A stretch of DNA of 64,000 nt from Chiloscyllium plagiosum (taxonomy: Eukaryota): NCBI RefSeq assembly GCF_004010195.1, contig NC_057718.1, positions 10,840,460-10,904,459 on the forward strand, in the 5' to 3' direction. The notes beneath the pieces were generated by a model that saw only the letters and a program-made list of their open reading frames with translations, did not search any database and was not told where the DNA came from. Of this stretch, positions 14,452-63,473 are shown one piece after another; the first letter of the stretch is position 1, and each line of letters begins with the position of its first letter. The translations under genes and the position numbers were made by a program.

Positions 14452-15950
14452 GGAGAAAGTGAGGACTGCAGATGCTGGAGATCAGAGTAGAGAGCGGGGT
14501 GCTGGAAAAGCACAGCAGGTCAGGCAGCATCCGAGGAGCAGACGAATCAACGTTTTGGGCACATGCCCTTCATCAGGAATGAGGCTTGTGGGCCAGGGTC
14601 TCTGATAAGCTGGAGAGGGATGCGACTGGGGGGAAGGTAACTGGGAATGCAGTAGGTAGATGAAGGTTGGGGAGAAGGTGATAGGTCGGAGAGGAGGGTG
14701 GAGTGGATAGATTGGAAAGATGATGGACAGGTCAAGTGGGCGGTGCTGAGTTGGAGGCTTGGGCCTGGGATAATGTTTGGGGGAGGGTGTGGGGAAGAGG
14801 TGGGGAGGGAATGATGAAACTGGTGAAATCTACATTGATCACATGTGGTTGCAGGGTCCCAAGGCGGAAGACATTGGTGGTTAGGGCTTGGTTATGGAGG
14901 ATGCCCAGGACCTGTATGTCCTTGGTGGAGTGGGAGAGGGAGTTTAACTGTTCTACCAAAGGGTGGTGGGGTTGATTGGTGCGGGTGCCCCAGAGATGTT
15001 CTCTGAAATGATACACAAATAGGCGTCCTGTGTCCCCGATATAGAGGAGACCACATCGGGTGTAACAGATACAGTAGATGACATTTGTGAAAGTACAGGT
15101 AAATTTCTGTCAAATGTGCAAGGACCTTTGGGGCCTTGGAGGTGAGGGGGAAGGTGTGGATGCAGGTTTTGCACCTCCTGTGGTGGCAGAGCTGGTTGGG
15201 GGGGGGGCTGGAATCTGTCAAGGGAGCTACAGAGGGAATGGTCTCTCTGGAGTGCTGATAGAGGTGGGGAGGGAAAAATATCCCTCGTGGTGGGGTTTGT
15301 ATGTAAGTGGTGGATGTGGCGGAGGATGATGCGATGTATTCGGAGGTTGGTGGGGTGGAAGGTGAGGACCAGAGGGGTGGGATTCAAGGGCAGAGTTGCG
15401 GGAAGTGGAGGAGATGCACTGGAGGGCATGGTTGACCATGTGGGAGAGGAAATCGCAGTCTATGAAGGAGGAGGCCATGTTGGATTTTCAGTGGTGAAAT
15501 TGGTCCTCCTGGGAACAGATGTGGCAGAAGCAGAGGAATTGGGAATAAAGGATGGCATTTTTACAGGAGGCAAGGTGGAAGGTGGTGTAGTCCAGGTAAC
15601 TCTGGTAATTGGTGGGGTTGTAGTAGATGTCTGAGATTAGATGGTCGCCAAAGGTGGATGCGGAAAGGTCCAGGAATGGGAGGGAGGTGTCTGTGATAAT
15701 CCATGTGAATTTGAGGGTGGGGTGAAAGGTGTTAGTGAACCGTTCAACCTCCTTGTGGGAGTATGAGTTAGTGCCGAAACAGTCATTCATGTAGCAGAGG
15801 AAAAGGTGTGGGTTGGCGCTGGTGTAGTTGTGCAAGATGGACTGTTCCACATACACGACAAAGAGGCAGGGATAGCTGGGGCCCATGCGGGTGTCCATGG
15901 CTACCCTTTTGGTTTGGAGGAAGTGAGAGGATTGGAAGGATTTCTTCCAC
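14452..15950 (-). mobile_element. Penelope-like retroelement, 5'-truncated (RT, GIY-YIG region, terminus with mutated hammerhead)
   Basis: MDTRMGPSYPCLF...LFLCYMND...LPFLDL, HFREHL; terminus 14452-14580 with CUGAUGA...AAAA core. Confidence 0.9.
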
Positions 15951-16084
15951 GAGGCAATTTTCTGTCTCTTTACACCTCGTGATGTGTGTCAACAGTATTA
16001 ATTTTTCTTCTTGCATGGATTAAACTTCATTGGTCTCATTTGTTGACACTTCAGTTGAGATCTACTTTTTGATCATGATTTCTT

Positions 16085-16270
16085 CAGCAAGATTTGCACA
16101 ATGTTGCCAGGGCTGGAGGATTTGAGCTACAGGGAGAGTCTGTATAGGCTGTGGCTGTTTTCCCGCAAGTGTTGGAGGCTGAGGGGTGACCTGATAGAGA
16201 TTTATAAAATCATGAGAAGTGAGGATAGGGTAAATAGACAAAGTTTTTTGCCTGGGGTGGGGGAGTCCTT
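16085..16270 (+). mobile_element. CR1 LINE fragment
   Basis: MLPGLEDLSYRE...LRGDLIEIYKIM. Confidence 0.85.
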
Positions 16271-17050
16271 GTTGCAATTAGAGAGGTGGGGTTCAAGTGC
16301 GGAAGTGTGGCAAGTAGAGGTGTACACACCCTGGCTCGTGTGCTCATGTGCACCGCCTCCCGCCCTGGCTCGTGTGAAATGCTATCCCTTATTCCCAATT
16401 CCTCCCCTCCCACGTGGTGGATGATGCCCTCCAGCGTATTTTCTCCACTTCCCACACCTGTAACCACAAGGACAGAATCCCTCCAGTTCTCACCTTCCAC
16501 CCCACCAACCTCTGTATACATCGCATCATTCTCTACCATTTCCATCACCTAAGAACAGACCCCACCACCAGGGAAAAATTTCCCTCCCCACCCCAATCTG
16601 CGTTCTGGAGAGACCATTCCTTCCACGACTCCCTTGTTAGGTACATGGCCCCCCACCAACCTTCCCTCCACTCCCGGCACCCTCCCCCGCCACCACAAGA
16701 AGTGCAAAACCTGTGTCCACACCTCTCCCCTTACCTCCATCCAAGGTTCCAAAGGATCCTTCCACATTCAACCGAGATTTACCTGTACTTCCACACATGT
16801 CATCTACTGTGTCCATTGCTCCTGATGTGGTTTCCTCTACACTGGGGAAATAGGATGCCAACTTGCGGATCGTTTCAAAGGACATCTCTGGGACGCGCGC
16901 AGTAAACCATCTCATCGTCCCATAACCAAACATTTCAACTCCTCCACCCACTCTACAAAGGACATGCACGTCCTGGGCTGCCTCCATGCCAAATCCTAAC
17001 CACCCGATGTCTGGAGGAAGAACGCCTCATCTTCTGCCTTGGGATCCTTT
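16270..17050 (+). mobile_element. Penelope-like fragment (GIY-YIG region) with a short inverted 5' piece
   Basis: PVLTFHPTNL, CKTCVH...FTCTSTHVIYCVHC; 16270-16322 is reverse-oriented PLE sequence. Confidence 0.85.
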
Positions 17051-17092
17051 CTGGAGATTGACATCACAAAGCACCTACTTTCTTGGAGGTGC

Positions 17093-17684
17093 TGCATGCA
17101 TACTCTTTATTCCAACATGGAATGAATGTGTTGGTTTTACTGTCCAACTCTAATTCTGCTTCAGGTGGAGATGAGCTACTTTTTTGAACCTCATACCTGT
17201 AGTTCATCACATGTTTTCAATTCATATGTAAAGAACCAGAGAATCTCATCACTACATATGACTTTTCTCTTAATGCTGACTGGAGTGTGGCTTAAACAAA
17301 TCCTGTCTTTAGCCATATTTATCTCTTGATATTAGAAAAAACTTATTTTAGTGGGTTGTGTGAGGATGAATAATAGGTGAGGATACCCTGCTTGATGGAG
17401 AAGATAAAGTAAGTGGTATTTTAATTATCTTATTTCCTCACATATCTGCCTGTAGCATCATGCGCGACGAAATGTATCCAGTCAGCCACAACGGGCCAAT
17501 GAGCCTCCTGCACTGATGAGAAGAATGAGATTCTCTGGTTTTTTACATAATATGAATTGAAAACATGTGGTGAACAACAGGTATGAGGTTCAAAAAAGCA
17601 GCTCACCTCCACCTGAAGCAGAATTTGAGTTGAACAGTAAAACCAATACATTCATTCCATGGTGGAATAAATAGTATGTATGCA
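17093..17684. repeat. Long imperfect inverted repeat (arms 17093-17249 and 17525-17684)
   Basis: Arms are reverse complements; ORF-track peptides 17126+ and 17430- are near-identical. Confidence 0.9.
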
Positions 17685-18092
17685 ATAGAACAGTTTTACA
17701 GAATATATTCCAAGACATGCCAACCCATTGGTCAGCCACCCCATTCCAATTGCTACATTCTAACCAATGTGCAATTAACAATTTGCATTAGAAATGATCC
17801 AGAGAAGCTTCAAAATGGTGAACTAAGAAAATAAAATTAGAAACGTTTCAGAATTTTGATCTCCTGAATGAAAGGTTCTTACTTCTTGATTGAAGAGGAA
17901 CATTATGGCATTGGTTCCACTTTGTAAAGTGCATCACCAGCTGCTCAAAATGCAGACCTTGCAGTCTCATTATTGTTTCATATCTGTCAGCACTATTCTG
18001 ATATGAAACCAGAGATACAAATACAATTTGTTTCTCACCTGAATTTTTTAAAATTTTATTTTGTTATACATTTTTGCGCACTTGTTTTATAG

Positions 18093-18180: not shown

Positions 18181-19061
18181 GTAAGGAATATAATTAATCA
18201 AACTGTGTCAAACATGATTTTGTGGGTAGCAACTTCTAAAATGTAGCAGAAGTAAGGTTTTCAAGTGGTTGGTGTTACCACAAACCAAAACACTGGTTAC
18301 AATTGAAGTCGCTACAAAAAAAAATTACTACTTTATTCAAAGCCTTCAGTTTAAAATTTAGTGGTTAAAAATCTTAAGATTTATGCTATTGGATTTTATT
18401 GCCAACATGACAGACTGTTTTGTGTACACGCTATTGCTTGAGGTGTTATTTACTATATTTTGGTTGAAGCAAATGGCTGAACGGTTGTAAATATTCTTGG
18501 AAACAATGCTGACTTTGTTTTAATTTTCAACATGCTGGAAGTTTTTGACAACTGAAATTTTCAGAAACTTTGGTTTTCATCTCTTACTTTTCTTCTTAAA
18601 CCAAAGTTAATTCAGTTACACTTGCTCTCCTCTATTCCCTGCCACCAAGTAAATTTAAAAATAGCATATTGTGGGAGTCTCCCAAGTTGTGTGTCTGAAG
18701 TTGCGCATCTTTCTGACTTGGGTGTATATTGTTGTTTCCTTCTAATCTACAACATACAACTCTTAAGGGGTGCACCAACAGAGAGACCCAGTGTTTGGGC
18801 GACAGGGTATTCTTGGTGGTATGTCACTCCTACACATGACGTATGGTCTAATATAATGCATTAAAATAGTTGAAATTTTGCCAAGCATGCAAAGAAGTTT
18901 TAGACTGGACTTGACTTGCAGCTGCTGTCTAAGCTTCCCCAGTTTTCTTAAAGATGTGACTAAGATGCTTTCAACATAAAGTGACAAAAATTCTTAAATG
19001 CAGCATATGGAGGTAACACATTATCTGCAGTACACCACTCCAAGTATTATATTTCCCCCCA

Positions 19062-19410
19062 GGTCTGGCAGTATCTGTGGAGAGAAAGCAGACTTAACAT
19101 CTTGGGTCCAGTGACTCCTCTTCAGAATGGACTGTAGCTAGAAAAAGTTTGGTAGATATGGAGTGGGGTGAGGGGGAGGAGTAAAGATAAGTGGAGATGG
19201 AGCCCAGAGAGAGAGAGAGAGAGAAACAATTGAGCAGACAAAGGAATGCCTGAAGGTCAGCCTGGGATAATAGCTGCTAATGTGAACTGTTAGTGACTGA
19301 CAATGGGTTTTTGTGGGGTTGTTACCCACAAACTCTCTAGGCTCTATCTGCTGCCAGACCTGCATTTTTCCAGCAATTACAGATTTTGTTTCTGATTTAC
19401 AATATCTGCA
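19062..19410. mobile_element. Old Penelope-terminus element with inverted ends
   Basis: ggtctggcag at left versus ctgccagacc at right; degenerate hammerhead region near 19095-19128 (-). Confidence 0.55.
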
Positions 19411-19985: not shown

Positions 19986-20184
19986 TGGGAGGCAAGCAGG
20001 AGGCTGGAAGAACACAGCAAGCCAGACAGCATCGGGAGGTGGAGAAGTCAATGTTTCTGGTGTAACCCTTTTTACGCCTGAAATGTTGACTTCTCCACCT
20101 CCTAATGCTACCTGGCTAGCTATGTTCTTCCAAGCTCCTGCGTGCCTACCTTGGATTTCAGTATCTGCAGTTTTTTTTGTCTCT
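19986..20184. mobile_element. Palindromic Penelope-terminus mini-element with 10-bp TSD
   Basis: Arms about 19991-20064 and 20072-20147 are reverse complements; TTCTAAAAGC at 19976-19985 and 20185-20194. Confidence 0.75.
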
Positions 20185-21199: not shown

Positions 21200-21739
21200 G
21201 TGAGCTTTCGTGATCGCTGTGATGAAATGTTCAATTTACAGCTACTTACTAATTGGTGCTTATAAAAATAATATTCCAAAGCTATAGGTGTCAATTGTGC
21301 AGGATTACTACCCCTTAACTCCAAATCAGATGGGCAAGCCATTATCTAAACATAAGAACTATTGGCATTGTGACTTGTTGAGGGAGTCGCTATTCATCCT
21401 TGCCTCTTTTTCTTTAGAAGTCTAATGTTGAAAGGAACATATTCATTTTTCCAACTCTTTTAAAAAGGATCTTAGATTTTGTGTAGGACGTGCAATTCTC
21501 TATCAACCCCTCTCGGAATATTTTTGGCCATTCAAAAGGATTCAATAAAAAAATCCTACCTTTTAATTTTTGACCTGAATTGTAATAGTTGAAGGAGAAA
21601 CGTTCCATTTACTTGACATTCCAAGTCCAATATGGCAGGTTGATGTATACTGAATCTACTGCATTATCTTTCCCAGTAATCTGTGAAGTTGTTTATATTT
21701 AAACAACTCCTTACTATCCTTGGCTTGGCTACTTGATTG

Positions 21740-22324
21740 AGTCATAGAGATATACAGCACAGAAAAACACCCTTAGGTCCAATTAGTCCATGTTGACCAA
21801 ATAAATCCAGTCCCATTTGTTAGCATTTGGCCCACGTCCCTCTAAACCCTTCCGTTTCATATACCCATCCAGATGCCTTTTAAATGTTAGGATTGTACCA
21901 ACCTCCACCACTTCCTCTGGCCTCTCCATTCTATACGTGCACCAACCTCTGCGTGAAAAAGTTGCCCCTTAGGTCCATTTTAAATCTTTCCACTCTCACC
22001 TTAAACCTATACCTTCTTGTTTAGGCACCCCCATCTTGGGGAGAAGACGTTGTCTATTTACCCTATCTATGCCCTTCATGACTTGATAAACCTCGATAAA
22101 GTTATCCCCTCAGACTCTGGTCCAGCAAAACGACCCCCAGTCTATTCAGCCTTCCTCTCTAGCCCATACCCTCCAGCCCTGACAACATTCTTGTAAGTCT
22201 TTTCTGAACCCTTTCAAGTTTCGCAACTTCCTTCCAATAGGAAGGAGACCAGAATTGCATGCAATATTCCAAAAGGGGCCTAACTGATGTCCTGTATAGC
22301 CACAATATGACCTTCCAACTCCTA
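21740..22324 (-). mobile_element. CR1 LINE 3' fragment
   Basis: GAGTCATAGAGA tail; colinear with 1-450. Confidence 0.85.
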
Positions 22325-24860
22325 TAGAGTCATAGAGATGTACAGCACGGAAACAGACCCTTCGGTCCAACCCGTCCATGCCGACCAGATATCCCAACCC
22401 AATCTAGTCCCACCTGCCAGCACCTGGCCCAAATCCCTCCAAACCCTTCCAATCATATACCCATCCAAATGCCTCTTAAATGTTGCAATTGTACCAGCCT
22501 CCACCACATCCTTTGGCAGCTCATTCCATACACATACCACCCTCTGTGTGAAAACGTTGCCCTTTGGGTCTCTTTTATATCTTTCCCCTCTCACCCGAAA
22601 CCTATGCCATCTAGTTCTGGACTCCCCGACCCTGCCTATTTATCCTATCCATGCCCCTCATAATTTAGTAAACTTCTATAAGGTCACCCCTCAGCCTCCG
22701 ATGCTCCAGGGAAAACAGCCCCAGCCTGTTCAGCCTCTCCCTGTAGCTCAGATCCTCCAACCCTAGCAACATCCTTGTAAATCTTTTCTGAACCGTTTCA
22801 AGTTTCGCAACATCTTTCCGATAGGAAGGAGATCAGAATTGTATGCAATATTCTAACAGTGGCATAACCAATTTCCTGTACGGCTGCAACATGACCTCCC
22901 AACTCCTGTACTCAATACTCTGACCAATAAAGGTAAGCATAGCAAACGCCTTCTTTACTATCCTATCTAACTGCAACTGCACTTTCAAGGAGCTATGAAC
23001 CTGCACTTGAAGGTCTCTTTGTTCAGCAACACTCCCTAGGATCTTACCATTAAGTGTATAAGTCCTGCTAAGATTTGCTTTCCCAAAATGCAGCACCTCA
23101 CATTTATCTGAATTAAACTCCATCTGCCCATTTGCCCATCTGGTCCAGATCCTGTCGTAATCTGAGGTAACCCTCTTCACTGTCCACTACATCTCCAATT
23201 TTGGTGTCATCTGTAAACTTACTAACTGTACCTCTTATGTTCGCATCCAAATCATTTATGTAAATGACAAAAATTAGAAGACCCAGCACCGATCCTTGTG
23301 GCACTCCACTGGTNNNNNNNNNNNNNNNNNNNNNNNNNNNNNNNNNNNNNNNNNNNNNNNNNNNNNNNNNNNNNNNNNNNNNNNNNNNNNNNNNNNNNNN
23401 NNNNNNNNNNNNNNNNNNNNNNNNNNNNNNNNNNNNNNNNNNNNNNNNNNNNNNNNNNNNNNNNNNNNNNNNNNNNNNNNNNNNNNNNNNNNNNNNNNNN
23501 NNNNNNNNNNNNNNNNNNNNNNNNNNNNNNNNNNNNNNNNNNNNNNNNNNNNNNNNNNNNNNNNNNNNNNNNNNNNNNNNTTCAAGACATCCAGCACTTC
23601 CTCCTCCTCTGTAATCTGGACATTTTGCAAGATGTCACCATCTATTTCCCTACAGTTTATATCTTCCATATCCTTTTCCACAGTAAATACTGATGCAAAA
23701 TATTCATTTAGTAACTCCCCCATTTTCTGTGGCTCCACACAAAGGCTGCCTTGCTGATCTTCGAGGGGCCCTATTCTCTCCCTAGTTACTCTTTTGTCCT
23801 TAATATATTTGTAAAACCTCTTTGGATTCTCCTTAATTCTATTTGCCAAAGCTATCTCATGTCCCCTTTTTGCCCTCCTGATCACCCTCTTAAGCATACT
23901 CCTACTTTCTTTATACTCTTCTAAGGATTCACTCGATCTATCCTGTCTGTACCTGACATATGTTTCCTTCTTTTTCTTAACCAAACCCTCAATTTCTTTA
24001 GTCATCCAGCATTCCTATAGCTATCAGCCTTCCCTTTCACCCTGACAGGAATATACTCTCTCTGGATTCTTGTTATCTCATTACTGAAGCCTTCCCATTT
24101 TCCAACCGTCCCTTTATCTGCGAACGTCTGCCTCCAATCAGCTTTTGAAAGTTCTTGCCTAATACCATCAAAATTGGCCTTTCTCCCATTTAGAACTTCA
24201 ACTTTTAGATCTGGTCTATCTTTTTCCATCACTATGTTAAAATGAATAGAATTATGGTCGCTAGCCCCAAAGTACTCCCCCACTGACACCTCAGTCACTT
24301 GCCCTGCCTTATTTCCCAAGAGTAGGTCAAGTTTTGCACCTTCTCTAGTAGGTACATCTACATACTGAATCAGAAAATTGTCTTGTATGCACTTAAGAAA
24401 TTCCTCTCCATCTAAACCTTTACCACTATAGCAGTCCCAGTCGATGTTTGGAAAGATAAAATCCCCTACCATAACCACCCTATTATTCTTACAGATAGCT
24501 GAGATATCCTTACAAGTTTGTTTCTCAATTTCCACCTGACTATTGGGGGGGTCTATAATACAATCCCAATAAGGTGACCATCCCTTTCTTATTTCTCAGT
24601 TCCACCCAAATAACTTCCCTGGATGTACTTCTGGAAATATCCTCCCTCAGCACAGCTGTAATGCTATCCCTTATCAAAAGTGCCACTCCCCCTCCTCTCA
24701 CTGTTTGACTCACTTCGTTTCTCAGCTGTACCCATCTAAGATCGATCTCTTTCCCTGGGTCGTCCTCCTCTCTCCCCCCCCCCCCCCCCCACTTACTAGT
24801 TTAAACCCTCCCAAGCATTTCTAGCAAATTTCCCTGCCAGTACTTTAGTCCCCTTCACAT
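22325..24860 (-). mobile_element. Younger CR1 LINE (endonuclease and RT parts; spans N gap)
   Basis: VVMVGDFIFPNIDW, LDLLLGN, GASDHNSI (APE endonuclease); PQGSVLG...YINDLD...KFTDDTKIG (RT). Confidence 0.92.
23314..23580. other. Assembly gap (267 N)
   Basis: Run of N inside the CR1. Confidence 1.
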
Positions 24861-28334: not shown

Positions 28335-28530
28335 ATGAAGAATGCAAATGCTGGAGATCTGAAACAATAATAGAAATTGGTGGAGAAACTCAGCAGGCTG
28401 GCAGCAAATTTTGGAAGAAAGCAGAATTAATGATTCGAGTCTGGTGACTCTTCATCAGAACAGAGTTTAACTCTGCTTTCTTCCAGATGCTGCCAGACCA
28501 GCTGAGTTTCTCCAGCCACCTGTGTTTTTG
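28335..28530. mobile_element. Palindromic Penelope-terminus mini-element
   Basis: ggagaaactcagc..ctggcagca..ggaagaaagcaga versus tctgctttcttcc.gatgctgccag..gctgagtttctcc; hammerhead-like motif on - strand at about 28428-28461. Confidence 0.7.
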
Positions 28531-28899
28531 TTTTTAAAAAAAAATCCTAATCACTCAGTTAATAAATGCACTGATAGCTGTTATGTTGTTATGTTAGATT
28601 GGAAGGTCCAGGTTCAGATTCTAGTTAATATTCAATTGAAAGGCTGTTTCCGTCTACGAATTTCTGAGACAAATACGAAAGTTGGAAAAGAGGAGCATGC
28701 AGAGCCACAGTGACCCCTGCTGGAGAATGCAGATTTGTTCATTTTTAAAAATCACATGACACCAGGTAAAAGTCCAACAGGTTTATTTGAAGGCACTAGC
28801 TTTCAAAGTGCTGCTTCAGGTGGTTGGCACAATTTGGTGTTATGTGTTTGTCCATCCCAATCCAACAGCAGCTCCTCCAAATCTTGTTCATTTTTGATA

Positions 28900-29848
28900 G
28901 ATTCATAGAAGCAAATAGCACACAAAGGAGCCACCTGGTCTAACACGTTTGTGCCCCCTCATCATGCTTCATTCCATGCACTTTGTCCATTCTCCACTAA
29001 TCAACTACCTGGCTAACTCACTTTATTTGTGGAATTCTTCCAAAATAGTTTCATGTGAAGGATTGAACAATTGAGTAAAAGCACTTCTCTTTTTACTGCT
29101 GTCTCTAATCTTTCACCGATGAAGTTGAAGCTATACCTTCTTTATCATTAACAATTCCTCAATGTTTAGTTTTTCCTTTATTCTATCAAAATCTCTCTTC
29201 ACCTTGATAACCTCTATGTTCTAAGGAGAAACATTTCTAATTTTTTTCAACCTTCCCTCATAATTCAAAGTCCTTGTCCCTGGTAAGGCCCTCTCTGCCT
29301 CTTCTCAGGCCAATCCATCTTTCCTGAAGTATGGTGTTCAGAATTGTCCACAGTACTCCCACCTAAAGTGTAGCCAGTGAATTAGAGTCATAGAGATGTA
29401 CAGACCCTTTGGTCCAACTCATCCATACTGACCAGATATCTTAAATTAATCTGGTCCCATTTGCTAGCACCTGGAATCGAATCGAACCTGGGACTGTGAG
29501 GCAACAGTGCTAACCACTGAGCTCGCCCTTTTTTAAAGGGTAGATTAGATGATATTCCCTACAGTGTGGAGACAGGCCCTTTGGTTCAACCAGTCCACAG
29601 CAACCCTCCGAAGAGTAACTCACCCAGATCCATTCCCCTCTGACTAATGGACCTAACACTATGCCCCTATCCCCCTCAACTCTGTCCATTCATGTACCCA
29701 TCCAGATACATTTTAAATGTTGTAATTGTACCAGCATCTATCATTTCCTCTGGCAGCTCATTGCATACATGCACTACCTTCTGATAAAGATTCCACTTAG
29801 GTCCCTTTTAATACCTTTTTCTTCTCAGCATAAACTTATTCCACCTCT
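28900..29848 (-). mobile_element. Nested CR1 3' fragments with V-SINE pieces (about 29470-29660)
   Basis: CR1 tail at 29385; reverse-complement SINE head and tail; CR1 resumes near 29660. Confidence 0.7.
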
Positions 29849-31455
29849 CTAGGTAGTTGTGGGAGTCGGTCGGTTTATAGTAAATGTCCGTGTTGAGTCG
29901 GTCGCCCGAGATAGAAATGGAGAGGTCTAGGAAGGGGAGGGAGGTGTTAGTAAAGTGGATGAACTGTTCAACCTCCTCGTGGGAGCACGAGGTAGCGCCG
30001 ATACAGTCATCGATGTAGCGGAGGAAAAGGTGGGGGGTGGTGCCAGTGTAGCTGCGGAAGATGGACTGTTCCACATATCCGACGAAGAGGCAAGCATAGC
30101 TGGGGCCCGTGCGGGTGCCCATGGCTACTCCTTTGGTTTGGAGGAAGTGGGAGGATTGGAAAGAGAAGTTGTTCAGAGTGAGGACCCGTTCAGTCAGTCA
30201 AGGAGGGTGTCAGTGGAAGGGTACTGGTTGGGTTGGTGGGAAAGGAAGAAACGGAGGGCTTTGAGGCCTTCGTGATGGGGGATGGAGGTGTATAGGGACT
30301 GGATGTCCATGGTAAAGACAAGGCGTTGGGGGCTGGGGAAGCGAAAATCATGGAGGAGGTGGAGGGCGTGGGTGGTGTCCCGAACGTAGGTGGGGAGTTC
30401 TTGGACTAAGGGAGACAGGACCGTGTTGAGGTATACAGAGATGAGTTTGGTGGGGCAGGAGCAGGCTGAGATAATGGGTCGGCTGGGCAGGAGGTAGAAA
30501 TGGGCGGTGCAGGGTTGTGGGACTATGAGGTTGGAGGCGGTGGATGGGCGATCCCCTGAGGGGATGAGGTTATGGATGGTCTGGGAGATGATGGTTTGGT
30601 GGTGGGAGGTGGGGTCCCACCTAGACTACACCTTCTCCCACCCTGCCCCCTGTAAAAACGCCACCCCATGTTCCCAATTCCTTCACCTCTGCCACATCTG
30701 CTCCCAGGAGGACCAATTCCAATACCGAACAACCCAGATGGCCGCCTTCAAAGACCGCAATTTCTCCTCAGACGTGATTGACGGTGCACTCCACCGCATC
30801 TCCTCCACTTCCTGCTCCTCTGCCCTTGAACCCCGCCCCTCCAATCGCCACCAGGACAGAACCCCACTGGTCCTCACCTACCACCCCACCAACCTCCAGA
30901 TACATCGTATCATCCTTCGTCATTTCCGCTACCTCCAAACAGACCCCACCACCAAGAATATTTTTCCCTCCCATCCCCTATCAACGTTCCGGAAAGACCA
31001 CTCGCTCCGTGACTCCCTCGTCAGGNNNNNNNNNNNNNNNNNNNNNNNNNNNNNNNNNNNNNNNNNNNNNNNNNNNNNNNNNNNNNNNNNNNNNNNNNNN
31101 NNNNNNNNNNNNNNNNNNNNNNNNNNNNNNNNNNNNNNNNNNNNNNNNNNNNNNNNNNNNNNNNNNNNNNNNNNNNNNNNNNNNNNNNNNNNNNNNNNNN
31201 NNNNNNNNNNNNNNNNNNNNNNNNNNNNNNNNNNNNNNNNNNNNNNNNNNNNNGCCTATCACCCTCACCTTAACCTCCTTCCACCTATCGCATTCCCAAC
31301 GCCCCTCCCCCAAGTCCCTCCTCCCTACCTTTTATCTTAGCCTGCTTGGCACACCTTCCTCATTTCTGAAGAAGGGCTTATGCCCAAAACGTCGATTCTC
31401 CTGCTCCTTGAATGCTGCCTGACTTGCTGCGCTTTTCCAGCAACACATTTTTCAG
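29849..31455 (+). mobile_element. Penelope-like element with 5' inversion (29849-30616 minus; 30617-31455 plus)
   Basis: Minus: MGTRTGPSYACLFVGYVEQ...FLRYIDD...YKPTDSHNYL. Plus: LDYTFSHPAPCKNA..., then the terminus with a hammerhead motif at 31366-31393. Confidence 0.88.
31026..31253. other. Assembly gap (228 N)
   Basis: Run of N inside the PLE. Confidence 1.
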
Positions 31456-33003: not shown

Positions 33004-33135
33004 AGATTATCACAGCCACCATGTGGACTGTAACAAGATTATTTTTGTGATTATTGTGGTGTACCTTGTTCTTGTGATCCTGTTAATATTCATTGAATTA
33101 AATTAATACAAATGCACAAATTCTGTTGACTGGAT

Positions 33136-33698
33136 ACCTGGTCAGGTCCACGCCCCCTACAACCCACCCTCCCATCCTGGCACCTTCCCCTGCCACTGCA
33201 GGAACTGCAAAACCTGCGCCCACACCTCCTCCCTCACCTCCATCCAAGGCCCTAAAGGAGCCTTCCACATCCATCAAAGTTTTACATCCACTAATATCAT
33301 TTATTGTATCCGTTGCTCCCGATGCGGTCTCCTCTACATTGGGGAGACTGGGCGCCTCCTAGCAGAGCGCTTTAGGGAACATCTCCGAGACACCCGCACC
33401 AATCAACCAAACCGCCCCGTGCCCCAACATTTGTCCTACCTGCCTATCTTCTTTTCCACCTATCACCTTCATCCCCTCCCCCACTCACCTATTGTACTCT
33501 ATGCTACTTTCTCCCCACCCCCATCCTCCTCTCACTTATCTCTCCATGCTTCAGGCTCTCTGCCTTTATTCCTGATTAAGGACTTTTGCCCGAAATGTCG
33601 ATTTTACTGCTCCTCGGATGCTGCCTGAACTGTTGTGCTCTTCCAGCACCACTAATCCAGAATCTGGTTTCCAGCATCTGCAGTCATTGTTTTTACCT
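33136..33698 (+). mobile_element. Penelope-like 3' fragment with internal deletion and terminus
   Basis: CRNCKTCAH, LYIGETGRLLAERFREHL (GIY-YIG); terminus nearly identical to the reverse complement of 63251-63376. Confidence 0.88.
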
Positions 33699-34521
33699 AT
33701 CTGGTTTGTATTGCAGAGTGATGCTAACAGTGTGGGATCAATTTCTGTACCACTTTCTCAACCTTGCTCCTCAGCTAAGGCATTGTGACCCTCATATTAA
33801 ATTGATGACCCAGTTATCTTGCTGTACCAAATGAGCAGCCTTATGGTCCTGAGACCATGCCAACTTTACCTTGCAAACTTGATTGTTGTTATTTCCATTG
33901 AACATTCAGTTAATCTGCTTTACTGCTTGGGAAGCACATATTGTGTGCCTATTTTCAAACTCTGTTTAAAACAAAATCAATATACGCACGTTCATTCATG
34001 TTCACATGAGCCTCCACACCATTGCATCCCAAATGCCAGGTTGTTTTTTTACCTGTCAGGCGAGTGAAAATTGGATACTGGTTTAAAGCCTGGGGTTGGG
34101 CACACTAATATTATTTTGGTTGTTCTGGGGCTGAGATATTTGAAATGAAATGTTCACTGGAATATAGGTTTGAAAGTTGTATGGCCTAGCGAAGCTGTTG
34201 GTCATTAATTGTAAAAGACTGAGTTCCTTTATGGAACTGATAGAATGGTTGCAACAGAGGAAGCTGTTGGCCATTGTGCCAGAACCAGGTCTCTTTAAGA
34301 GTAACGTCTCTGGTCCCACTTGCTGCCCTTTACCTGTAGCCATGTAAATGTTTTTCTTTTAGATGCTTATACAATTCCTTTCTGAAAGTCTCTGACCACT
34401 TTTCTGCATTAAAAAAAAAGTTCTTTCCCATGTTCCCAAGTTTATCTTAGTTTTGGTTTTTAATGCTGAATTTAGAATTGTTCATTTTGGTTTAATTGCA
34501 TGTTTACATTTTCATTCCAAG

Positions 34522-39829: not shown

Positions 39830-40168
39830 TAACTGTGGATCCTGGATATCAAACAAAATCAGATATTGCCAGAAAAGCTGAGCAGGTCTGGCAGCATCTG
39901 TGGAGGGAAATCAGAGGGTGATGGGCGTTTGGAACGCGTTGCCAGCAGAGGTGGTAGAGGCAGGCACAGTAGATTCATTTAAGATGCGTCTGGACAAATG
40001 CATGAGTAAATGGGGAGCAGAGGGATACAGATGCTTAGGAATTGACTGACAGGTTTAGACATTACATTTGGATAGGCTTAGGCTTGGAGGGGCGAAGGAC
40101 CTGTTTCTGGGCTGTAAATTTTCTTTTCTTTGTTAATATTTCATGTCCAGTGACCCTTCCTCAGCACT
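39830..40168 (-). mobile_element. Penelope-terminus element interrupted by a + strand CR1 3' end (about 39917-40132)
   Basis: gcaggtctggcagcatctgtggag...cagag | CR1 | ttaatatttcatgtccagtgacccttcctcag. Confidence 0.7.
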
Positions 40169-43977: not shown

Positions 43978-45071
43978 GTAAGTAGATTTATGTCACCTTT
44001 TAATACGTTGTTAAACTTTAGGAATGTGGGAATATGCTGAAAGAGCTCCTATACCTCCTTGACGCACTCTATCATATGTAAATATTGTATCTTCATGAGC
44101 TTGCAAGTTTGGTTCTCTTCTGTGATGTCATGTTGGTCATCCTATGATATATTCATTACTCCTTGAAATAACTGTACCGGAAGTATATTTTCAGATAAGT
44201 ATACTTGATTTTTGATGTTGACATTGTATAAAAGGAGTTGTTAGAACCCTTGCTGAATTTACATCAGTTTATTTTTAATCTTGTACAATTTGGGGCTGGA
44301 AATGACTGGTGGACATTGGGACAGATTGTATTAAAAGGGGAAAAAGCAGAATAACCAAGCTTTCCTTTGTTTGTGAGGCAAAACCTGGAAAATAATTACA
44401 GGCTGAGCCTCGATTTTAAAAAGGTACTAACAGATGCAGTGACCTCCTAAGAAGAGCATTGTGTTTTAAACCGATAACAGAAGTTTGCTATTTACAAGGT
44501 CAGTACCTTGGATATGGTTCCAGCAAATCTGAAAGAGACCCTATATTCAAGTTGGTGGCAATATTTGAATTGAGGCCTTGGAAGTGTCAATTAGTTGGGG
44601 TGGAACCAGAATTCAAGTTTTTTTTTAACCATGTTTTATGAGAAATAAATCCAGACTGCTGCTAAAGCAGTCAAGATCCGAAAGCTCCCTGCCTAGCCTG
44701 ATACCCTCGACACGTTACTGAAACCTAAAGAGTAGAGAGTTGAGTTGGAAGCATTGCTGCTTTTGCTAGGGTTAACCGAGGAAGTGACCTAAATCAATAT
44801 TTTAGAAAAGTAGCCAAGGGATCCACATTTATGTCTGAAACAATGCCTTCAGGAAATCCATTTAAATTATTTGTCTAGATATGTTGTTTTCTTTTATTTA
44901 ACCCATAACTATGCTTGCTTGTTTGTTTTTGTTGGTTTGTCTTTTGTGCAAATGGGGCCTGAAAATAAATGCTGTGGGTTTTAAGCACAGATGTTAATCA
45001 GCTTACTGTGTTTAATTTTCTCTTTGCTGAAGTTATTGTGTGATTGAAAAGTTAAGTCTCTTGTTTAAGAT

Positions 45072-45199
45072 GGAGAAAGTGAGGTCTGCAGATGCTGGAG
45101 ATCAAAGTTGAAACTTTATTGCTGGAACAGCACAGCAGGTCAGGCAGCATCCAGGGAACAGGAGATTCGACGTTTAGGGCACAGGCCCTTCCTCAGGCC
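45072..45199 (-). mobile_element. 128-bp Penelope-terminus insertion with 12-bp TSD
   Basis: CTTGTTTAAGAT at 45060-45071 and 45200-45211. Confidence 0.88.
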
Positions 45200-45219
45200 C
45201 TTGTTTAAGATACAAAACT

Positions 45220-48327: not shown

Positions 48328-48477
48328 ATGATGAGATCCTATTTCAAGCGAGCTGACCCGTTCTTTGACGAACAAGAAAATCATAGTCTTATTGGGGTTG
48401 CAAATGTATTTTTGGAATTGCTCTTTTACGATGTTAAATTGCAGTATGCAGTACCCATCATTAACCAGAAGGGAGAG
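48328..48477 (+). CDS. KIF13B: KIF13B exon ~20 (MMRSYFKRADPF...IINQKGE)
   Basis: ttgcag|ATGATG...GGAGAG|gtatgt; 150 nt. Confidence 0.95.
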
Positions 48478-49009
48478 GTATGTGATAGTCCACTGTACTT
48501 CGCTGGTAATGTTGAAAGGCTGCAGTTAGAAAATGTTGAATGTTATCCTTCCACCTCTGAGATATTGATGTTAACTCCAACCTCTGAAAACCTTAAATTC
48601 TCAAATAATATGCAAGGGAATTACCCACTTGATAAGATGATAATTGTGTATTGTAAAGCTCTTGGGTTGCTGTTTCCTGCATCATAATTGCTATGGAGAT
48701 ACAAATTCACATCCAAGCAAACATCAACATTAGCTACTAAATTCACTCTGATGCAGCTCTATTGATAGTCAGAACGTTTTTGAAAGGGAGTGCCTCAGGA
48801 TGACCTTATACCTTCAGTATCTGCTCTGATTTCTGACGTTTTCACTTCACAACAATCTTTCCTCATACCAAGTTGATGTTTTGCAGAATGGAGCAATTTT
48901 AAAATCCACAGAATTAAGTTTAAAAAGTGTCGACAGTGCACACAATGTGTACTGGGATTTGAACACTTCAGCTTGCATTTCACACAGAGGTGCTTTGCCA
49001 GATTGTGGG

Positions 49010-51843: not shown

Positions 51844-51864
51844 GTCATTCCCCACCACACTTAG

Positions 51865-53052: not shown

Positions 53053-53183
53053 CAATATATTCCAGTGTCCAACACAGAATTACTCAGGGATACATTTTCT
53101 GGAGTATAAATATTTGTGTTAAATATTTATACTCTGGAAATGTATTCTTGAGTAATTTCTGCATGTTGGATGTTGGCATATTG
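53053..53183. repeat. Imperfect palindrome/hairpin (about 60-bp arms, 5-nt loop)
   Basis: Perfect core GAGTATAAATATTT-gtgtt-AAATATTTATACTC with imperfect extension. Confidence 0.85.
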
Positions 53184-53227
53184 ATTTGAAGTTAATGTAT
53201 AACCACATCTAGTTGATTTTTTTTCAG

Positions 53228-57611: not shown

Positions 57612-58979
57612 GTAACTGGAGGGCAGGAGAGTTCCAAGCTGTGCGTCAGTGAGGATAGAGGTCTGGAAGTCCTTTTGGAGTCTAATGTTGAGGTGGAATG
57701 GAAAGAATATGATTTTGGCAGAAGGAAGACAGTGCAATTGTTCATATAAGGTCCTAGTATGATGTATTAATGTGTTTTCTGTGTGCAACCCACACTAAAT
57801 AGTCCTTATTGTCCGAGTTAAAATACACAGTCAAAATACATCAAGCATCAACCATATAGTGCAAGAATCTAGTTAGTCATGTGGAAGCCAGAATTGTAGG
57901 AGAGGAGTTGTGAGCCATTTCCTCTCGGAGAAGTTAGTGATGCAGTTGGGTTGTCAGAGTAATACGACAGCAGTTCCTTGTACTTGTTCACAGATGATCA
58001 GGTTTTATTCAGTATCATAGCATTGAGGTCTGGTCTGCCAACCAGTATCCAAAGTATCTTGTCATATGATGGGTTGGGTTCTAAGTTCCTGTTTCTTGTG
58101 GAATATTTTAGCAAATTTTATCTGTATAGGTGATACCATTGTGCCAGCAATCAGTTGATGATGCAGCAAGAAACTAGGATTTTTTTCTTTAGTCAAGTAA
58201 GCCTTCAAAAAGTGGCTTGGTGAATCTGGAGGACCTCCTCATCCCTATTATTATTGGATTTCAACTGCTTATTACTATGTTATTATAGCTGGCTCTCAAA
58301 AAACATGTGATGCACATTCTCATAGAGAAAGACTTGTACTTCTGAATGTAGATAATGCTAACATCATTTCCCTGGACCAAACGTTTGTAAGTATAGTTCA
58401 AAACATTGTCAGATAGTTACAGATTATGGAGGGTTATTCAGCATATTTTCAGTTCATCCATTCAAAAAAGAACCTCTCTCACCACTGTGATAATATTCAA
58501 TAAGTTCTGAAATGTTTTCAGAATTTTGCCTGCACTAATAAACTGTGCACTCCATTCAGTGTACTGGTTGATGAGTGTAGAGAACATCATGGTATTAATC
58601 CTAAACTTGTCTCCTATTCATACACCTATCTTCCATTTTAATTCTCATTTAATTTCTCATTCACATATTAATTCTCTCCATTTTCCAAACACTTGCCCTG
58701 CTTTATGCGCATCTCTTGAGATCATGCCTCAGGCAGGAATGTGTTTTCAAGGCTAAAAGCTTTGATTTTACTTGTAGCTCAGCCCTTTGTAACTTCCAGA
58801 TCATGCATGTTCCCCTTGTATAGCAATGATCAGACTGTCCACAGTATATAAAGTGTAGTCAGCTGAATATATTAGGTAGTTTGATCATGGCTTTGTCTGT
58901 CTGATATAGTAATATTTTGGCTATGCAGTTCACTATTTTCTTGCCTTGTTGATTGGTGTTCTGCATTTAATTGGGCATG

Positions 58980-59060
58980 AAAATGTGTTGCTGGAAAAGC
59001 GCAGCAGGTCAGGCAGCATCCAGGGAACAGGAGAATCGACGTTTCTGGCATAAGCCCTTC
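58980..59060 (-). mobile_element. 81-bp Penelope-terminus insertion with 13-bp TSD
   Basis: TTAATTGGGCATG at 58967-58979 and 59061-59073. Confidence 0.88.
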
Positions 59061-59749
59061 TTAATTGGGCATGTCTAGCATCAAGCTAACTAAGTTTTCT
59101 AGATGTAAAACTCCATCTGTAGTTATTTTTGCGCCATTTATGCAAATGTGGATCATCCATTTTTCTTTTCTCTATGTAGCATTAAATTGAATCGAGCATT
59201 GATTTCTAGCTATTGTATTTAACTCATTTGATTGAGTGTCTCCTTTAATTTCACCAACCCTTTCTAGTTTGATACCGCCCGAAAATATGACCAATGTGTA
59301 AAGGGGTTATGAGTGCAGGTTACAGATCTAGATGAGAAATTTAGTGACCCCAAATGCCAGTTCTTGGGGTCTACACATTTCCATATCATTTCACAAGTTT
59401 GTGCTCATTCCAATGATACAGCCAGTTTTTTTCAAAATTTTGTTCCCAAGATTTACAGTAAATTTATTGATGGCTTTTTAAAGGAAATTTTGACAAATGG
59501 GTTTTGAACGACTGGGTACGATACATCACTGTTCATTTCAATGTGAAGGTTGTTGGTCAGAGAGGAACTTTCTTTGAATTTATGTTGGTTGCTATTCACT
59601 TGATTTCATTTCTTATGATTCGTACATTAGTTTGAAAGTTGCCTTATGAGCCTGTTGTTGTCTCTGATGTATTCTGTCTTTTTTTAATGTGAACAACATA
59701 TTAGTCTTTTGATAAAAATGTGCTTCATCTTTGTTCCATCATTTTTCAG

Positions 59750-59896
59750 GGTCAATCTCGACGTATTCAAGTTGAAGTGAGGTCAGTCCAAGATTCTGGG
59801 ACGTTGCCTTTAATTGCTGAAGCAGTTCTATCTATTGCTGTGGGATGTGTCAAAACCAGACCTGCTAGAAACCAGAAATATCCAGATGCTCACATG
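59750..59896 (+). CDS. KIF13B: KIF13B exon ~25 (GQSRRIQVEVRSVQDSGTLPL...DAHM)
   Basis: tttcag|GGTCAA...CACATG|gtaaga; 147 nt. Confidence 0.93.
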
Positions 59897-60408
59897 GTAA
59901 GAGGTTTCAGGTCTGTTACTGTTGATAATGGCAGAACAATTTAAAATGATTAATTAGAAATGGCACAGAGGAGCACACAATGGGGGATTTAACTATTGGA
60001 ATCAAAACTATGTTTTTATCTTGTATTAGGAATTTGGCATATGTTGCATTTTGAATTGGCAAAGGCGGTTTGAATGGAAAGAAAGCAAAATGCGAACTAA
60101 ACATTTGAGATAACTGAGTTGTAGACTATAACTATAGTTGCAATCTCTGCTGCTATGACTGTTCCTGGTTCTCTGTTGCTTGATTCCAAGTGAGTTCTGG
60201 TGCTGACTCGATCTGGCATAGTCAACCTTGTCTACTTCAAGTCATGCTCTGTAGGAAAAGAACTTAATGCATGTTGTGTAACTGTGAAGTAAACATGTTG
60301 TGCTTTATAAAGTGATGCTGCTTAGGTGAAATGTTCACCCAATTAATAAATCTGTATACCTCACCTATATTAGCAATGCTTTGACATTTGCTATTACCTT
60401 TTACACAG

Positions 60409-60438
60409 GAAGAGGAAGATGACATGGACAGTTACCAG
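60409..60438 (+). CDS. KIF13B: KIF13B exon ~26, 30-nt micro-exon (EEEDDMDSYQ)
   Basis: acacag|GAAGAG...TACCAG|gtatga; matches the conserved EEEEDMDSYQ peptide. Confidence 0.93.
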
Positions 60439-60699
60439 GTATGATTTGATAACTTTACTATTCTGCTGTCTATTCTGGCCTTCATTTTATGCAAATTGCT
60501 CTCTCTTGGCTGTCACTGGTACAATTGCCACACAAATGTTGTTGTAAATCAGCTTTCAACAAGTATAAAAGCTTAAGCAATTCAGCTCTGGTACGTCTGG
60601 TAGAGTTGCATGAGACTGAGAACCAAGAAAGCACTATTGGCTTTCCTTTGATTAGATTATTGTTGAATGAAACTCACTCCTTGTTCCTACAAAATTATT

Positions 60700-60985
60700 C
60701 GTGCCATTCAGCCCATTGAGTCTCTTCTGCATTTCTATCATGGCTAATATGTATCTCAACTTCATTTTTCTGCTTTGTCCCTGTAGCCGCTGTTCTTCTT
60801 ACTACTCAAGAACCTGTCTTAAAGGCACTCAATGACTTGACCTCTCAGCCTTCTGTGGCTGAGTTCCACAGATTACCATCCTCTGCTGAAGAAATTTCCC
60901 CTCATCTCCACTCTAAAGGGTCGTCCCTTCACTCTGCCTTTAGGTCCTAGTCTCTCCTACTAGTGGAAACATCATTACCACATCT
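60700..60985 (-). mobile_element. CR1-type 3' end
   Basis: gccattcagccca..gagtct terminus; gagttccacagatt, gaagaaattt. Confidence 0.65.
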
Positions 60986-61379
60986 TCTGTATAAAAGTAC
61001 ATACCTTTTTAAACTGTCATACTGTCAGCTTTTGATGGAGACAGTATATGGCATGTTTTATATGAAGGGGTTATTGTGAATTGAGCGTCTTTTCATTTCA
61101 CCATTCCATTGAGCACTGTCAGGTTAAGTGTAAGATGTGAGCAAAACTCCCCATAGTCCAACATCTTGTTTATGGTCATGCAAGAGAGTTCCTGACTGTA
61201 ATGGTGCAATATTTTTTTCATTTAAAACAACAAGCATCCTAGAAACATAAGGAAAAATGCTCAAGAGGACAATATTATGTTTATAGTTTACATTTATCAA
61301 AAATCCGATCTAGATTGCCTAGTTAATTTTAGTTGTACTAATATCCTAAAATTAACTGAAATGTACTTTATTATACGGA

Positions 61380-61880
61380 GACATCCATCTGTTTTGGGAA
61401 ACGAGGGGCTGGATTGACATGGCAAGACCAATTTGTGAGCATAAGTCACTTCTACAGCTGGTATAAGTGAATAACTTTGGACTGAAGTTGACTGATGGTT
61501 TTGTCCGCTGGTGCGCTGTCTTGCAATATCTGGTCACTTCTTTGTTCCTCTGCTTTTATCATGCCCTTCCTGACATATTGTCTCCAGGCAGTCCAGTCAG
61601 CAGAGAGGACTTGCCATGCTTCAGCTCTGATCCTGGCCAACTTGAGGACTTGCTTAAAGACATTCTTGAAATGTAGATGTGAACAATTTGTTTGTCTTGT
61701 GTCGATAGCATGCGTGTGATAGAACGTGATTTTGAGATCTGCCTGTAATCTATTTGAAATGTGTGACTCCTCCAACAGTGTTGCTGATGACTTGAGTCCC
61801 AATGTGTTGGAGATCCCTTTGATTGGTGTACTTCCATATCTGGCACTCTGTCTTGCCAGGAGATGATAAATGTATTGTAA
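61380..61880 (-). mobile_element. RTE-clade LINE 3' fragment
   Basis: HLHFKNVFKQVLKLARIRAEAWQVLSADWTAWRQYVRKG resembles the RTE C-terminal motif R.KD..K..LK...I....WE.LA.DR..WR. Confidence 0.65.
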
Positions 61881-61939
61881 AGGGACAGAAATGGATGATA
61901 CGTTGAGCAAGAACATTAACTCTTTCTAATATATTACAG

Positions 61940-62039
61940 GAGAGGGATTTAGAGAAGCTACGTCGGAAATGGTTAAGTGCGTTGACCAAGAGGCAAGAAT
62001 ACCTTGACAAGCAGCTACAGAAACTTGCTAGCAAACCTA
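61940..62039 (+). CDS. KIF13B: KIF13B exon ~27 (ERDLEKLRRKWLSALTKRQEYLDKQLQKLASKP)
   Basis: ttacag|GAGAGG...CCTA|gtaagt; 100 nt. Confidence 0.94.
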
Positions 62040-62680
62040 GTAAGTGAAGCAAGCTCAGAGGCAACAATTTTGAATAATCAGTCTGTTACTGTAGCATTTC
62101 TTGATTACAGCCCATCCGCTAAATTCTGTCTTTGCTGCCCTAGTCTTTCCAATTCTTACCCTTTGTCCCTTTCAGGCCGTAAGCCACAAGAGATGTCAAT
62201 CTGTGAGCATCATTCACCCATCAGAACTCACTCAGCTATAATTGTATGAGCCTGAATAGTAAGTATCAGCAGGCTCCTCTATGTGTGTGCTATCTGTTCT
62301 TGTCCTCAGCAATCTGATTTTCAGACTCCACACACTAGTAGAGGTCATCACAGCCCCATGGTGTCATTAAAAGTAATGCAGAGAAAGCTGCATTATGAAT
62401 TCAAATGTTCTTAATATACTGTTATGAATCTGAGGTTGAAATAAGTATTTTGCTGATCAAGTTCATTTCTGTTTTGAGCACGCCAATATACCGCCTAAAT
62501 TAGATGTGAAATGTCCTGTCCATGGTTGGTGACGTATGAGTTCTGACATAATGCATGTGCTGGCAGTCTCCCATCATTCTCCGTGGTTTGAACAGGATTT
62601 TTGCTATCTTACTTCAGGCACCAGTTTCTCCTCTCGTTATGTTGGAGTCAGATGTGAATTTGATGCCATGTATCTTTCAG

Positions 62681-62807
62681 ATAAATCTGAAGATGATGCA
62701 GACCGAGAGGCGCAGTTGCTAGAACGAAGATTAACTCTAACTGAGGAGAGGAATGCTGTCATGGTCCCGTCAGCAGGAAGTGGAATCCCAGGATCCCCAG
62801 CGAAATG
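62681..62807 (+). CDS. KIF13B: KIF13B exon ~28 (KSEDDADREAQLLE...GSGIPGSPAKW)
   Basis: tttcag|ATAAAT...AAATG|gtttgt; 127 nt. Confidence 0.93.
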
Positions 62808-63247
62808 GTTTGTCCTAAAATTGATTAACCAAAATAAAATTCTTCAGCTGAATGTTGTGAATTGCCATGGTGAGAGCCACTGATAGACTCAGAGATGTAC
62901 AGCATGGAAGGAGCCATTGATTGAGTTATAGACATATACAGCACAGAAACAGACTCTTCAGTCCAACTTGTTCATGCTGACCAGATATCCCAACCCAATC
63001 TAGTCCCACCTGCCAGCACCTGGCCCATATCCCTTCAAACCCTTCCTATTCATATATCCATGAAGATGCCTTTTAAGTGTTGCAATTGTACTAGACTTCA
63101 CCACTTCCTCAGGCTGCTCATTCCATACATGTACCACCCTGTGCATGAAAAAGTTGCCCCTTAGGTCTTTTATATCTTTCCCCTCTCACCCTTAACCTAT
63201 GCCCTCTAGTTTTGGACACCCTCAACCCAGGGAAGAGACTTTGTCTA

Positions 63248-63473
63248 CTTAGGTAAAAACAATGACTGCAGATGCTGGAAACCAGATTCTGGATTAGTGG
63301 TGCTGGAAGAGCACAGCAGTTCAGGCAGCATCCGAGGAGCAGTAAAATCGACGTTTCGGGCAAAAGCCCTTCATCATTTATTCCTGATGAAGGGCTTTTG
63401 CCCGAAACGTCGATTTTACTGCTCCTCGGATGTTCCCTGAACTGCTGTGCTCTTCCAGCACCACTAATCCAGA
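63248..63473. mobile_element. Palindromic Penelope-terminus mini-element with 10-bp TSD
   Basis: Arms about 63287-63376 and 63385-63474 are near-perfect reverse complements; ACTTTGTCTA at 63238-63247 and 63474-63483. Confidence 0.9.
63378..63417 (+). ncRNA. Putative minimal type I hammerhead ribozyme (PLE-associated)
   Basis: auuc-CUGAUGA-A-GGGC-uuuu-GCCC-GAAA-C-GUC-gauu: intact core, stem II, loopless palindromic stem III (ACGU), predicted cleavage after C63411. Confidence 0.7.

Follow-up and report, generated by a model that had tools for sequence, protein, structure and literature searches.

The DNA analysed here (the window) is a 64,000-nucleotide stretch of Chiloscyllium plagiosum contig NC_057718.1, and window coordinates below are counted from its first letter. 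It is mostly intron of a vertebrate gene, of which a kinesin-3 exon, presumably KIF13-like, lies at about 48390-48480 on the plus strand (Pfam KIF1B, E=1.2e-5). Its repeats resemble those of sharks. Scattered through it are copies of the terminus of a Penelope-like element (PLE) that carries a hammerhead ribozyme (HHR), and our subject is where these copies end. A sequence-only reading of the window had placed ten hammerhead-like motifs at PLE termini, and the described terminus is indeed present at all ten places. Positions in the element are numbered so that +1 is the first base, a G, past the predicted cut after GAAACGUC; on this scale C3 is -28 and the first base of helix I is -32. Four long copies (14576, 19125, 31366 and 33572) have C/T-rich untranslated region (UTR) upstream, and three of them adjoin fragments of an open reading frame (ORF) for reverse transcriptase (RT) or GIY-YIG endonuclease. 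Six short copies, here called stubs, include three with clear target-site duplications (TSDs) of 10-13 bp. The copies, with their minimal hammerheads (min-HHRs) and coding pieces, are as follows.

14452..14760, minus strand: long family-A PLE copy with 3' UTR, min-HHR and terminus (C3 14576, predicted cut 14549/14548)
14732..15988, minus strand: broken PLE ORF with RT-like and GIY-YIG-like pieces, upstream of the 14576 terminus; no Pfam match of its own, the GIY-YIG-like piece being 62% identical over 53 amino acids to the Pfam-positive GIY-YIG at 33107
19061..19300, minus strand: long copy of family-B type with C/T-rich UTR and decayed min-HHR (C3 19125), its 3' side cut short
19987..20150, no single strand: head-to-head palindromic stub of a third family, its arms beginning inside stem II, centre about 20069, CUGANGA lost; no TSD found at its flanks
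28335..28533, minus strand: family-B palindromic stub, forward arm from 28461 (C3-3; C3 28458), inverted arm ending about at the cut site; possible 6-bp TSD
29808..30625, minus strand: PLE reverse transcriptase fragments (Pfam RVT_1, E=0.0016 and 0.0018, both under the curated cut-off)
30498..31451, plus strand: long family-A copy with ORF end, assembly gap, UTR, min-HHR and short 3' end (C3 31366, cut 31393/31394)
33107..33699, plus strand: long family-A copy with Zn-finger linker and GIY-YIG (Pfam E=2.8e-5, above the cut-off), UTR, min-HHR and tailed terminus (C3 33572, cut 33599/33600)
39871..40168, minus strand: family-B stub starting at 40168 (C3-4; C3 40164), with a later unrelated insertion of about 215 bp
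45072..45197, minus strand: stand-alone stub starting at -29 (C3 45196, cut 45169/45168); 12-bp TSD 45060-45071 / 45200-45211 and two extra G at the 5' junction
58980..59060, minus strand: stand-alone stub from G8 (-23), without tail (cut 59038/59037); 13-bp TSD 58967-58979 / 59061-59073
63248..63473, no single strand: palindromic stub with a tailed inverted arm to -27 and a forward arm from -35 (63377) without tail (C3 63384, cut 63411/63412); 10-bp TSD 63238-63247 / 63474-63483

The motifs consist of CUGANGA, one extra A, a stem II of 4-5 bp and GAAA, followed by CG-UH; the stretch A15.1-C-G-U16.1 is palindromic and leaves no room for helix III. By this layout they are minimal hammerheads of PLE pseudo-LTRs (pLTRs; LTR, long terminal repeat), a known kind. 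The canonical hammerhead descriptor missed most of them, and an Rfam scan of the window (14 matches, E<=10) returned no hammerhead family; its matches on the palindromes were to hairpin-type microRNA (miRNA) models. A strict descriptor found four of the window's motifs, whereas 200 Markov controls had 0.03 on average (maximum 1); the window motifs beyond these four are decayed. As had been proposed, stem II differs between families and subfamilies yet stays paired (GGGC/GCCC, GGGUC/GACCC, GAGUC/GACUC): it forms at least 4 bp in 135 of 170 motifs from the window and from loci fetched elsewhere in the genome, compared with a shuffled mean of 5.5 (maximum 14). In the same 170 motifs helix I pairs 2.1, 2.2 and 2.4 are formed in 87, 91 and 85%, and pairs 2.5 and 2.6 in only about 30%; pair 2.3, which is U.U in family A and G-C in family B, forms in 19%. 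The stem covariation suggested as a check shows as compensatory base changes from family to family, in stem II and in helix I pair 2.1-1.1 (C-G/U-A), in few lineages and below the level of an R-scape test. The hammerhead monomer folds no better than its shuffles (z=-0.85). Three motifs of the fetched loci represent yet another min-HHR type, in which there is an additional U and stem II has 6-7 bp. There is also a 3'-splice-like pyrimidine tract with AG at about 33553-33555 (plus strand) and 19132-19134 (minus strand), and in two fetched loci (L181, L182); it precedes helix I by 14 nt in family A, and in family B falls within the 5' strand of that helix.

Judged from its coding neighbourhood, the terminus is that of an endonuclease-bearing PLE. 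A GIY-YIG domain above the Pfam cut-off stands directly upstream of the UTR and hammerhead, and the RVT_1 matches are weak (E about 0.002) and confined to fragments. The GIY-YIG domain is preceded by a Cys-x4-Cys-x2-Cys linker, which we take to be a feature of Neptune and Nematis PLEs; as the host is a vertebrate, Neptune is presumably the clade. At two loci (L038 and L039) the order is terminus, ORF start, a deleted part, UTR, hammerhead and terminus, which means that the same terminus stands before the ORF and at the end of the element. The ORF probably starts about 35 nt past the pLTR 3' end (L038:1570 onward). In the 3.56-Gb genome, to which all genome-wide counts refer, the pLTR-ORF junction word has 309 exact matches, a 23-mer of the family-A terminus at least 29,595, a family-B 30-mer 3,732, and control words none. 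Many long copies (L002-L025) carry differing internal deletions that join the GIY-YIG region to the UTR; these copies were picked by a query that itself has one such deletion. Long copies are also under-assembled, as assembly gaps often open 40-150 nt upstream of the ribozyme (L031-L130).

We focused on the 5' ends of family-A copies chosen by a word of their 3' tail, which makes the selection blind to the 5' end. The sample comprises all 100 listed exact matches among the 29,595 and spans the first 5.6 Mb of one contig (C1). Two copies 4 kb apart (L126 and L127) have identical flanks and represent a local duplication; L127 was removed. The remaining 99 copies were aligned to 12 natural long copies, and 21 of them are censored by assembly gaps or locus edges, leaving 78 uncensored 5' ends. 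Arm ends were called automatically and stand uncorrected by hand, and three calls (L033, L059, L111) seem to be off by 7-30 nt. An apparent breakpoint cluster at +12 was an artefact of using a single reference and vanished with 12.

The uncensored forward-arm ends are strongly clustered, with 28 of the 78 lying within 14 nt, at -37 to -24. Copies end there at about 8 times the rate seen elsewhere (4.2% against 0.5% per nt, p=3e-14); segment by segment, the end hazard per base is 0.3% from +63 to +15, 0.7% from +14 to +1, 0.9% from -1 to -23, 4.2% from -24 to -37, 0.8% from -38 to -70 and 0.5% beyond. In 5000 simulations with a constant hazard the best 14-nt window reached 27 ends. Since a TSD or an inverted arm directly adjoins 16 of the 28 edge ends, loss of homology does not account for the edge. 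Subfamilies differ strongly in their proportion of edge copies (18/23 in subfamily II, 14/61 in the other, 6/15 among unclassified copies), and 34 of the 99 copies, long or gap-censored, pass the -32 site.

Genome-wide, ends were counted with patterns that match the element from a given position onward and mismatch the bases before it; the patterns draw on somewhat different subfamily pools, which makes the counts rough. Apparent ends number 2318 at -32, compared with 163 at -38, 115 at -8, 40 at -2, 69 at +2, 75 at +3 and 66 at +18. After correction for capture under three microhomology weightings, about 6400-7200 ends remain at -32 against 190-620 per control position, an excess of about 10-35-fold at -32 over the six controls. 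A microhomology-weighted null shifts the normalised -32 count by only about 10%. After excluding two palindrome-centre prefixes we fetched 40 of the -32 matches, half preceded by G and half by A (20 each): none has UTR upstream, and 22 have an inverted arm. An artefact of homology dropping where a different UTR lies upstream is ruled out by these 40 and by the TSD and inverted-arm junctions.

Family B, whose upstream sequence is different, was sampled as every second of the first 80 listed matches on the same contig, or 40 of 3,732. In 13 of the 40 the forward arm begins within C3-6..C3+4, 6 are long, and five inverted arms start at C3-4..C3-1; several copies have internal deletions, so that automated calling under-extended their arms. 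The second family piles up at the same structural base as family A. The ends gather along the 5' side of the ribozyme (the 5' strand of helix I and CUGA) and are not centred on its core, stem II or cut site. The sequence-only reading had placed the cluster at the core and stem II: the genome-wide excess that it anticipated is real, its centre is not the one proposed, and the smooth truncation distribution that it offered as the contrary outcome was seen neither in the sample (28/78 ends within 14 nt) nor genome-wide (2318 at -32 against 40-163 at controls). The terminal-word copies in the genome are in this respect a base-resolution record of where reverse transcription ended.

A smaller excess lies at the cut site. 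The unbiased sample has 3 of its 78 ends at +1 and none at +2, -1 or -2. The +1 pattern has 687 raw genome matches, a misleading figure: among the 100 listed, 62 carry a TCG prefix and 11 TCA, and the other 27 were used. Three TCG-prefixed matches were fetched, of which two are local duplications and one is a palindrome with a short duplicated piece. A duplication of terminus +1..+17 between two GAT words recurs in hundreds of copies (L192, L207, about 60% of the 687 matches) and would reflect either RT slippage or a small subfamily. Among the 16 fetched of the 27 cleaned matches, 12 are terminal ends whose longer arm starts at +1, mostly with a fold-back arm that starts further 3'. Normalised ends at +1 number 660-810, against 190-360 at -8, -2, +2 and +3 and 435-600 at +18, all of these controls being uncleaned. 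We regard this modest spike, 2-4 times neighbouring positions, as suggestive, the sequence-matched control being close. An ATT-directed nuclease as its origin is rejected, since the ATT at +2 gives a background count (69).

At the other end of the element, copies stop at two sites about 35 nt apart, +99 or, without the tail, about +62. An adjacent inverted arm is found in 30 of the 99 family-A copies. This arm ends at +52..+68 in 24 of the 30 palindromes, against +99 for the anchored arm. The two arms end close together (Spearman 0.40, p=0.027, n=30), palindrome centres vary between copies, and junction microhomologies of 1-6 nt are common. Copies in the sample are single or head-to-head, often with a TSD; one tail-to-+1 tandem junction was seen (L203), and the window contains no head-to-tail array of hammerhead units. 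The target DNA 3' of family-A copies is T-rich at places 1, 4 and 5 (38-46 of 80), a possible nuclease preference.

On balance, we lean towards the stubs being by-products of target-primed reverse transcription by autonomous PLEs, with run-off at an RNA 5' end at helix I. The enzyme would prime internally at the 3' sites +62 and +99, as an Anolis PLE does in vitro, and RT would copy uncleaved RNA through the ribozyme and run off its 5' end at -32, in some cases at -33..-37. Transcription starting at an initiator-like word would be the most likely source of that end; failing that, RNA trimmed back to a protein-bound fold. The 95-130-nt cDNA would then join the target by microhomology or fold back into head-to-head palindromes. 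Long copies may arise when priming occurs at the downstream pLTR or when RT jumps past the -32 end, and the +1 spike may stem from a minority of templates already cut by the ribozyme. Both families read YYANWYY at the edge, with the A at C3-4, a word that can be likened to the initiator consensus. If the RNA begins with the ribozyme, helix I pairing is expected to stop at -32, and it does stop at the edge base. PLE transcripts are described as starting in the pLTR (PMC2377424). RNA ends are predicted at -32 (major) and +1 (minor).

Several observations weigh against this run-off. Being short, the initiator-like word is expected often in C/T-rich DNA. No 5' end of an RNA was seen, and there is no cap-derived G: among 100 listed -32 matches 47 have a G just before the edge, much as at control -8. 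In Drosophila virilis the transcription start lies 46 nt before a 75-nt intron that ends at helix I, or about 120 nt upstream of the ribozyme (PMC2377424; PMC4209133). Among 20 copies whose sequence extends to the ORF start, one arm passes -46 in 5 cases and stops at -36/-38 in only 2, which means that some templates were extended upstream or that jumps occur. Once cleaned, the +1 ends exceed the GAT-matched +18 control by a factor of only 1.3-1.7, and the strong subfamily difference in edge-copy share fits copying from master stubs equally well. RNA reads came from two runs, two contig runs being uninformative about molecule ends. One single-cell polyA run of 2026 gave 2104 matching reads, from both strands alike and almost none across the ORF junction; it showed no site where many molecules begin or end, and no GT-AG joint. 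Its loose read ends at -32 mix truncation with subfamily divergence and were left unused as evidence. The second run contained no matching reads.

A wider version, which is possible but which we hold only tentatively, is that PLEs produce a 'strong-stop' cDNA in the manner of retroviruses. Priming at the tail of the 5' pLTR would be followed by run-off at the first base of the hammerhead and a jump to the identical 3' pLTR; the thousands of stubs and hairpins would be failed transfers, and the +1 spike would reflect germ-line cutting by the min-HHR, with cut RNA sometimes copied. If this model is true, stubs map the RNA start to single-base precision, and the answers bear on how pLTRs are regenerated and on min-HHR function in vivo.

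An alternative, which we consider unlikely, is that the RNA extends further upstream and that RT is halted, or changes template, where it meets the ribozyme fold or a protein sitting immediately upstream of the fold. The edge does coincide with a structural element in two families, a pyrimidine tract with AG lies just upstream of it, about a third of copies pass the site, and the Anolis PLE ribozyme is protein-assisted (PMC11167929). However, RT would be expected to stop on meeting the 3' foot of a fold (+5 or -9), counts there are at background, and in vitro product length tracked 5' truncations of the template, according to the text of that study (PMC11167929). The sequence-only reading had offered stalling or template switching at the fold as the first of two options. 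A stall within it is unsupported, because an enzyme moving 3' to 5' reaches the far (5') side of helix I, where the edge lies, only after unwinding the fold; switching or fold-back at the ends fares better, given the inverted arm in 22 of 40 copies that end at -32.

It also seems rather improbable that the stubs were mostly copied from non-autonomous, SINE-like (short interspersed nuclear element) master stubs that start at -32 and are mobilised in trans, a process compatible with run-off and akin to the second option of the sequence-only reading, minus tandem units and circles. Subfamily II consists mostly of stubs (18/23 edge copies), and pLTR sequences suffice for trans-mobilisation in rotifer PLEs (PMC3846280). 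Yet stubs and long copies share the same diagnostic variants, 5' ends are scattered over 14 nt, palindrome centres differ from copy to copy, and the sampled stubs have no common flank or 5' exon.

We give little credence to an edge made at the DNA level, whether by the GIY-YIG nuclease cutting its own cDNA at ATT or by microhomology or later palindrome-centre deletion favouring this spot. The Anolis enzyme prefers 5'-ATT-3' (PMC11167929), family A has ATT at -32, and short junction microhomologies are common, as noted above. Family B, however, reads AGTT there and still piles up, the other ATT (at +2) gives only background, non-palindromic TSD-flanked stubs also start at the edge, and microhomology weighting barely alters the -32 count. 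Least probable of all is an origin in splicing, in which helix I would carry a 3' splice site and RT would drop off where the exons join: family B has AG after a pyrimidine tract at C3-4/C3-3, just as the D. virilis intron ends at helix I (PMC4209133), but the family-A AG, at -47/-46, lies 14 nt away from the peak, few ends fall there, and sampled stubs share no upstream exon.

Several PLE stubs lie inside abundant APE-type LINE (long interspersed nuclear element) fragments and related repeats (Pfam Exo_endo_phos_2, E=5e-6). The main fragments of this type are at 23274-24595 on the minus strand, with shorter pieces at, for example, 1-850, 5027-5262, 21733-23313 and 62917-63251. The window also contains palindromes without hammerheads, one AT-rich (53057-53181) and one a 160-bp inverted repeat (91%) within 17093-17684. 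Hairpin stubs mimic miniature inverted-repeat transposable elements and miRNA precursors and call for caution in annotation, because Rfam miRNA models match the palindromes.

The stubs were also compared with known systems, through the parts of the published accounts cited here. Like non-LTR retrozymes, they are short, non-coding, PLE-related and carry a type I hammerhead. Retrozymes, however, are head-to-tail tandem units of 150-450 bp, with a canonical HHR in the 2020 paper, and are expressed as circles (PMC7229834; 10.64898/2026.07.22.740005). The stubs here are single or head-to-head, TSD-flanked and carry a minimal HHR. Their starts lie about 30 nt before the cut and their 3' ends at the tail sites of PLEs; only 3 of 78 ends lie at +1, where a ribozyme-bounded unit would begin, against 28 at -37..-24. 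The idea that they are retrozyme-like units bounded by ribozymes was dropped on these grounds, as there is no head-to-tail array and the ends are not at the cut.

The closest relatives are the min-HHRs of metazoan PLE pLTRs, which occur as many families per genome, mostly as solo copies or as pairs on opposite strands, which have been attributed to truncated PLEs (PMC4209133). The motifs here share their CUGANGA core with an extra base, stem II and GAAA, the palindromic 15.1-16.1 stretch without helix III, and a 4-bp helix I, as described by Cervera and de la Pena 2014 (PMC4209133). They differ from the Schistosoma min-HHR in stem II, which has 7-8 bp there and 4-5 bp here (PMC4209133). The sections compared of that study contain no mapping of 5' ends and no cartilaginous fish (PMC4209133). 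The claim that the system is under-described does not hold, as min-HHRs in pLTRs, solo and opposite-strand copies, the inverted pLTR and the tail have already been described (PMC4209133; 10.1101/2021.04.23.441226; PMC3846280).

The copies also resemble insertions of endonuclease-bearing PLEs in having an adjacent inverted 5' copy, a 30-40-bp tail on one arm, TSDs of about 8-16 bp and microhomology junctions (PMC3846280; 10.1101/2021.04.23.441226). In those accounts 5' truncation is described as variable (PMC3846280; 10.1101/2021.04.23.441226), whereas here it has a hot spot with a mode one base wide. Arkhipova 2013 argues for an antisense template (PMC3846280), whereas our data would fit fold-back of a sense-templated cDNA. 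In the Poseidon PLE of Anolis carolinensis, internal priming occurs at two sites, both target strands are extended and uncleaved RNA is the main substrate (PMC11167929). As here, two priming sites define its tail; its main site is about 85-92 nt past the cut, compared with about +62 and +99 (PMC11167929). The Poseidon ORF starts in the ribozyme (PMC11167929), whereas the ORF here likely starts past the pLTR end and has an additional Zn-finger linker. The Poseidon study found no RNA reads ending at the cut (PMC11167929), and the +1 spike here would be a genomic sign of some cleavage. A literature search that covered titles, starts of abstracts and passages, outside subscription journals and Repbase reports, yielded no report of PLE 5' ends accumulating at the edge of the hammerhead or at its cut site, although the genome coverage in Fig. 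S2 of the Anolis study (PMC11167929) may already contain such an accumulation. The element is of a known kind, and the pile-up at the edge of helix I is apparently an unreported property of it, and one that can be tested.

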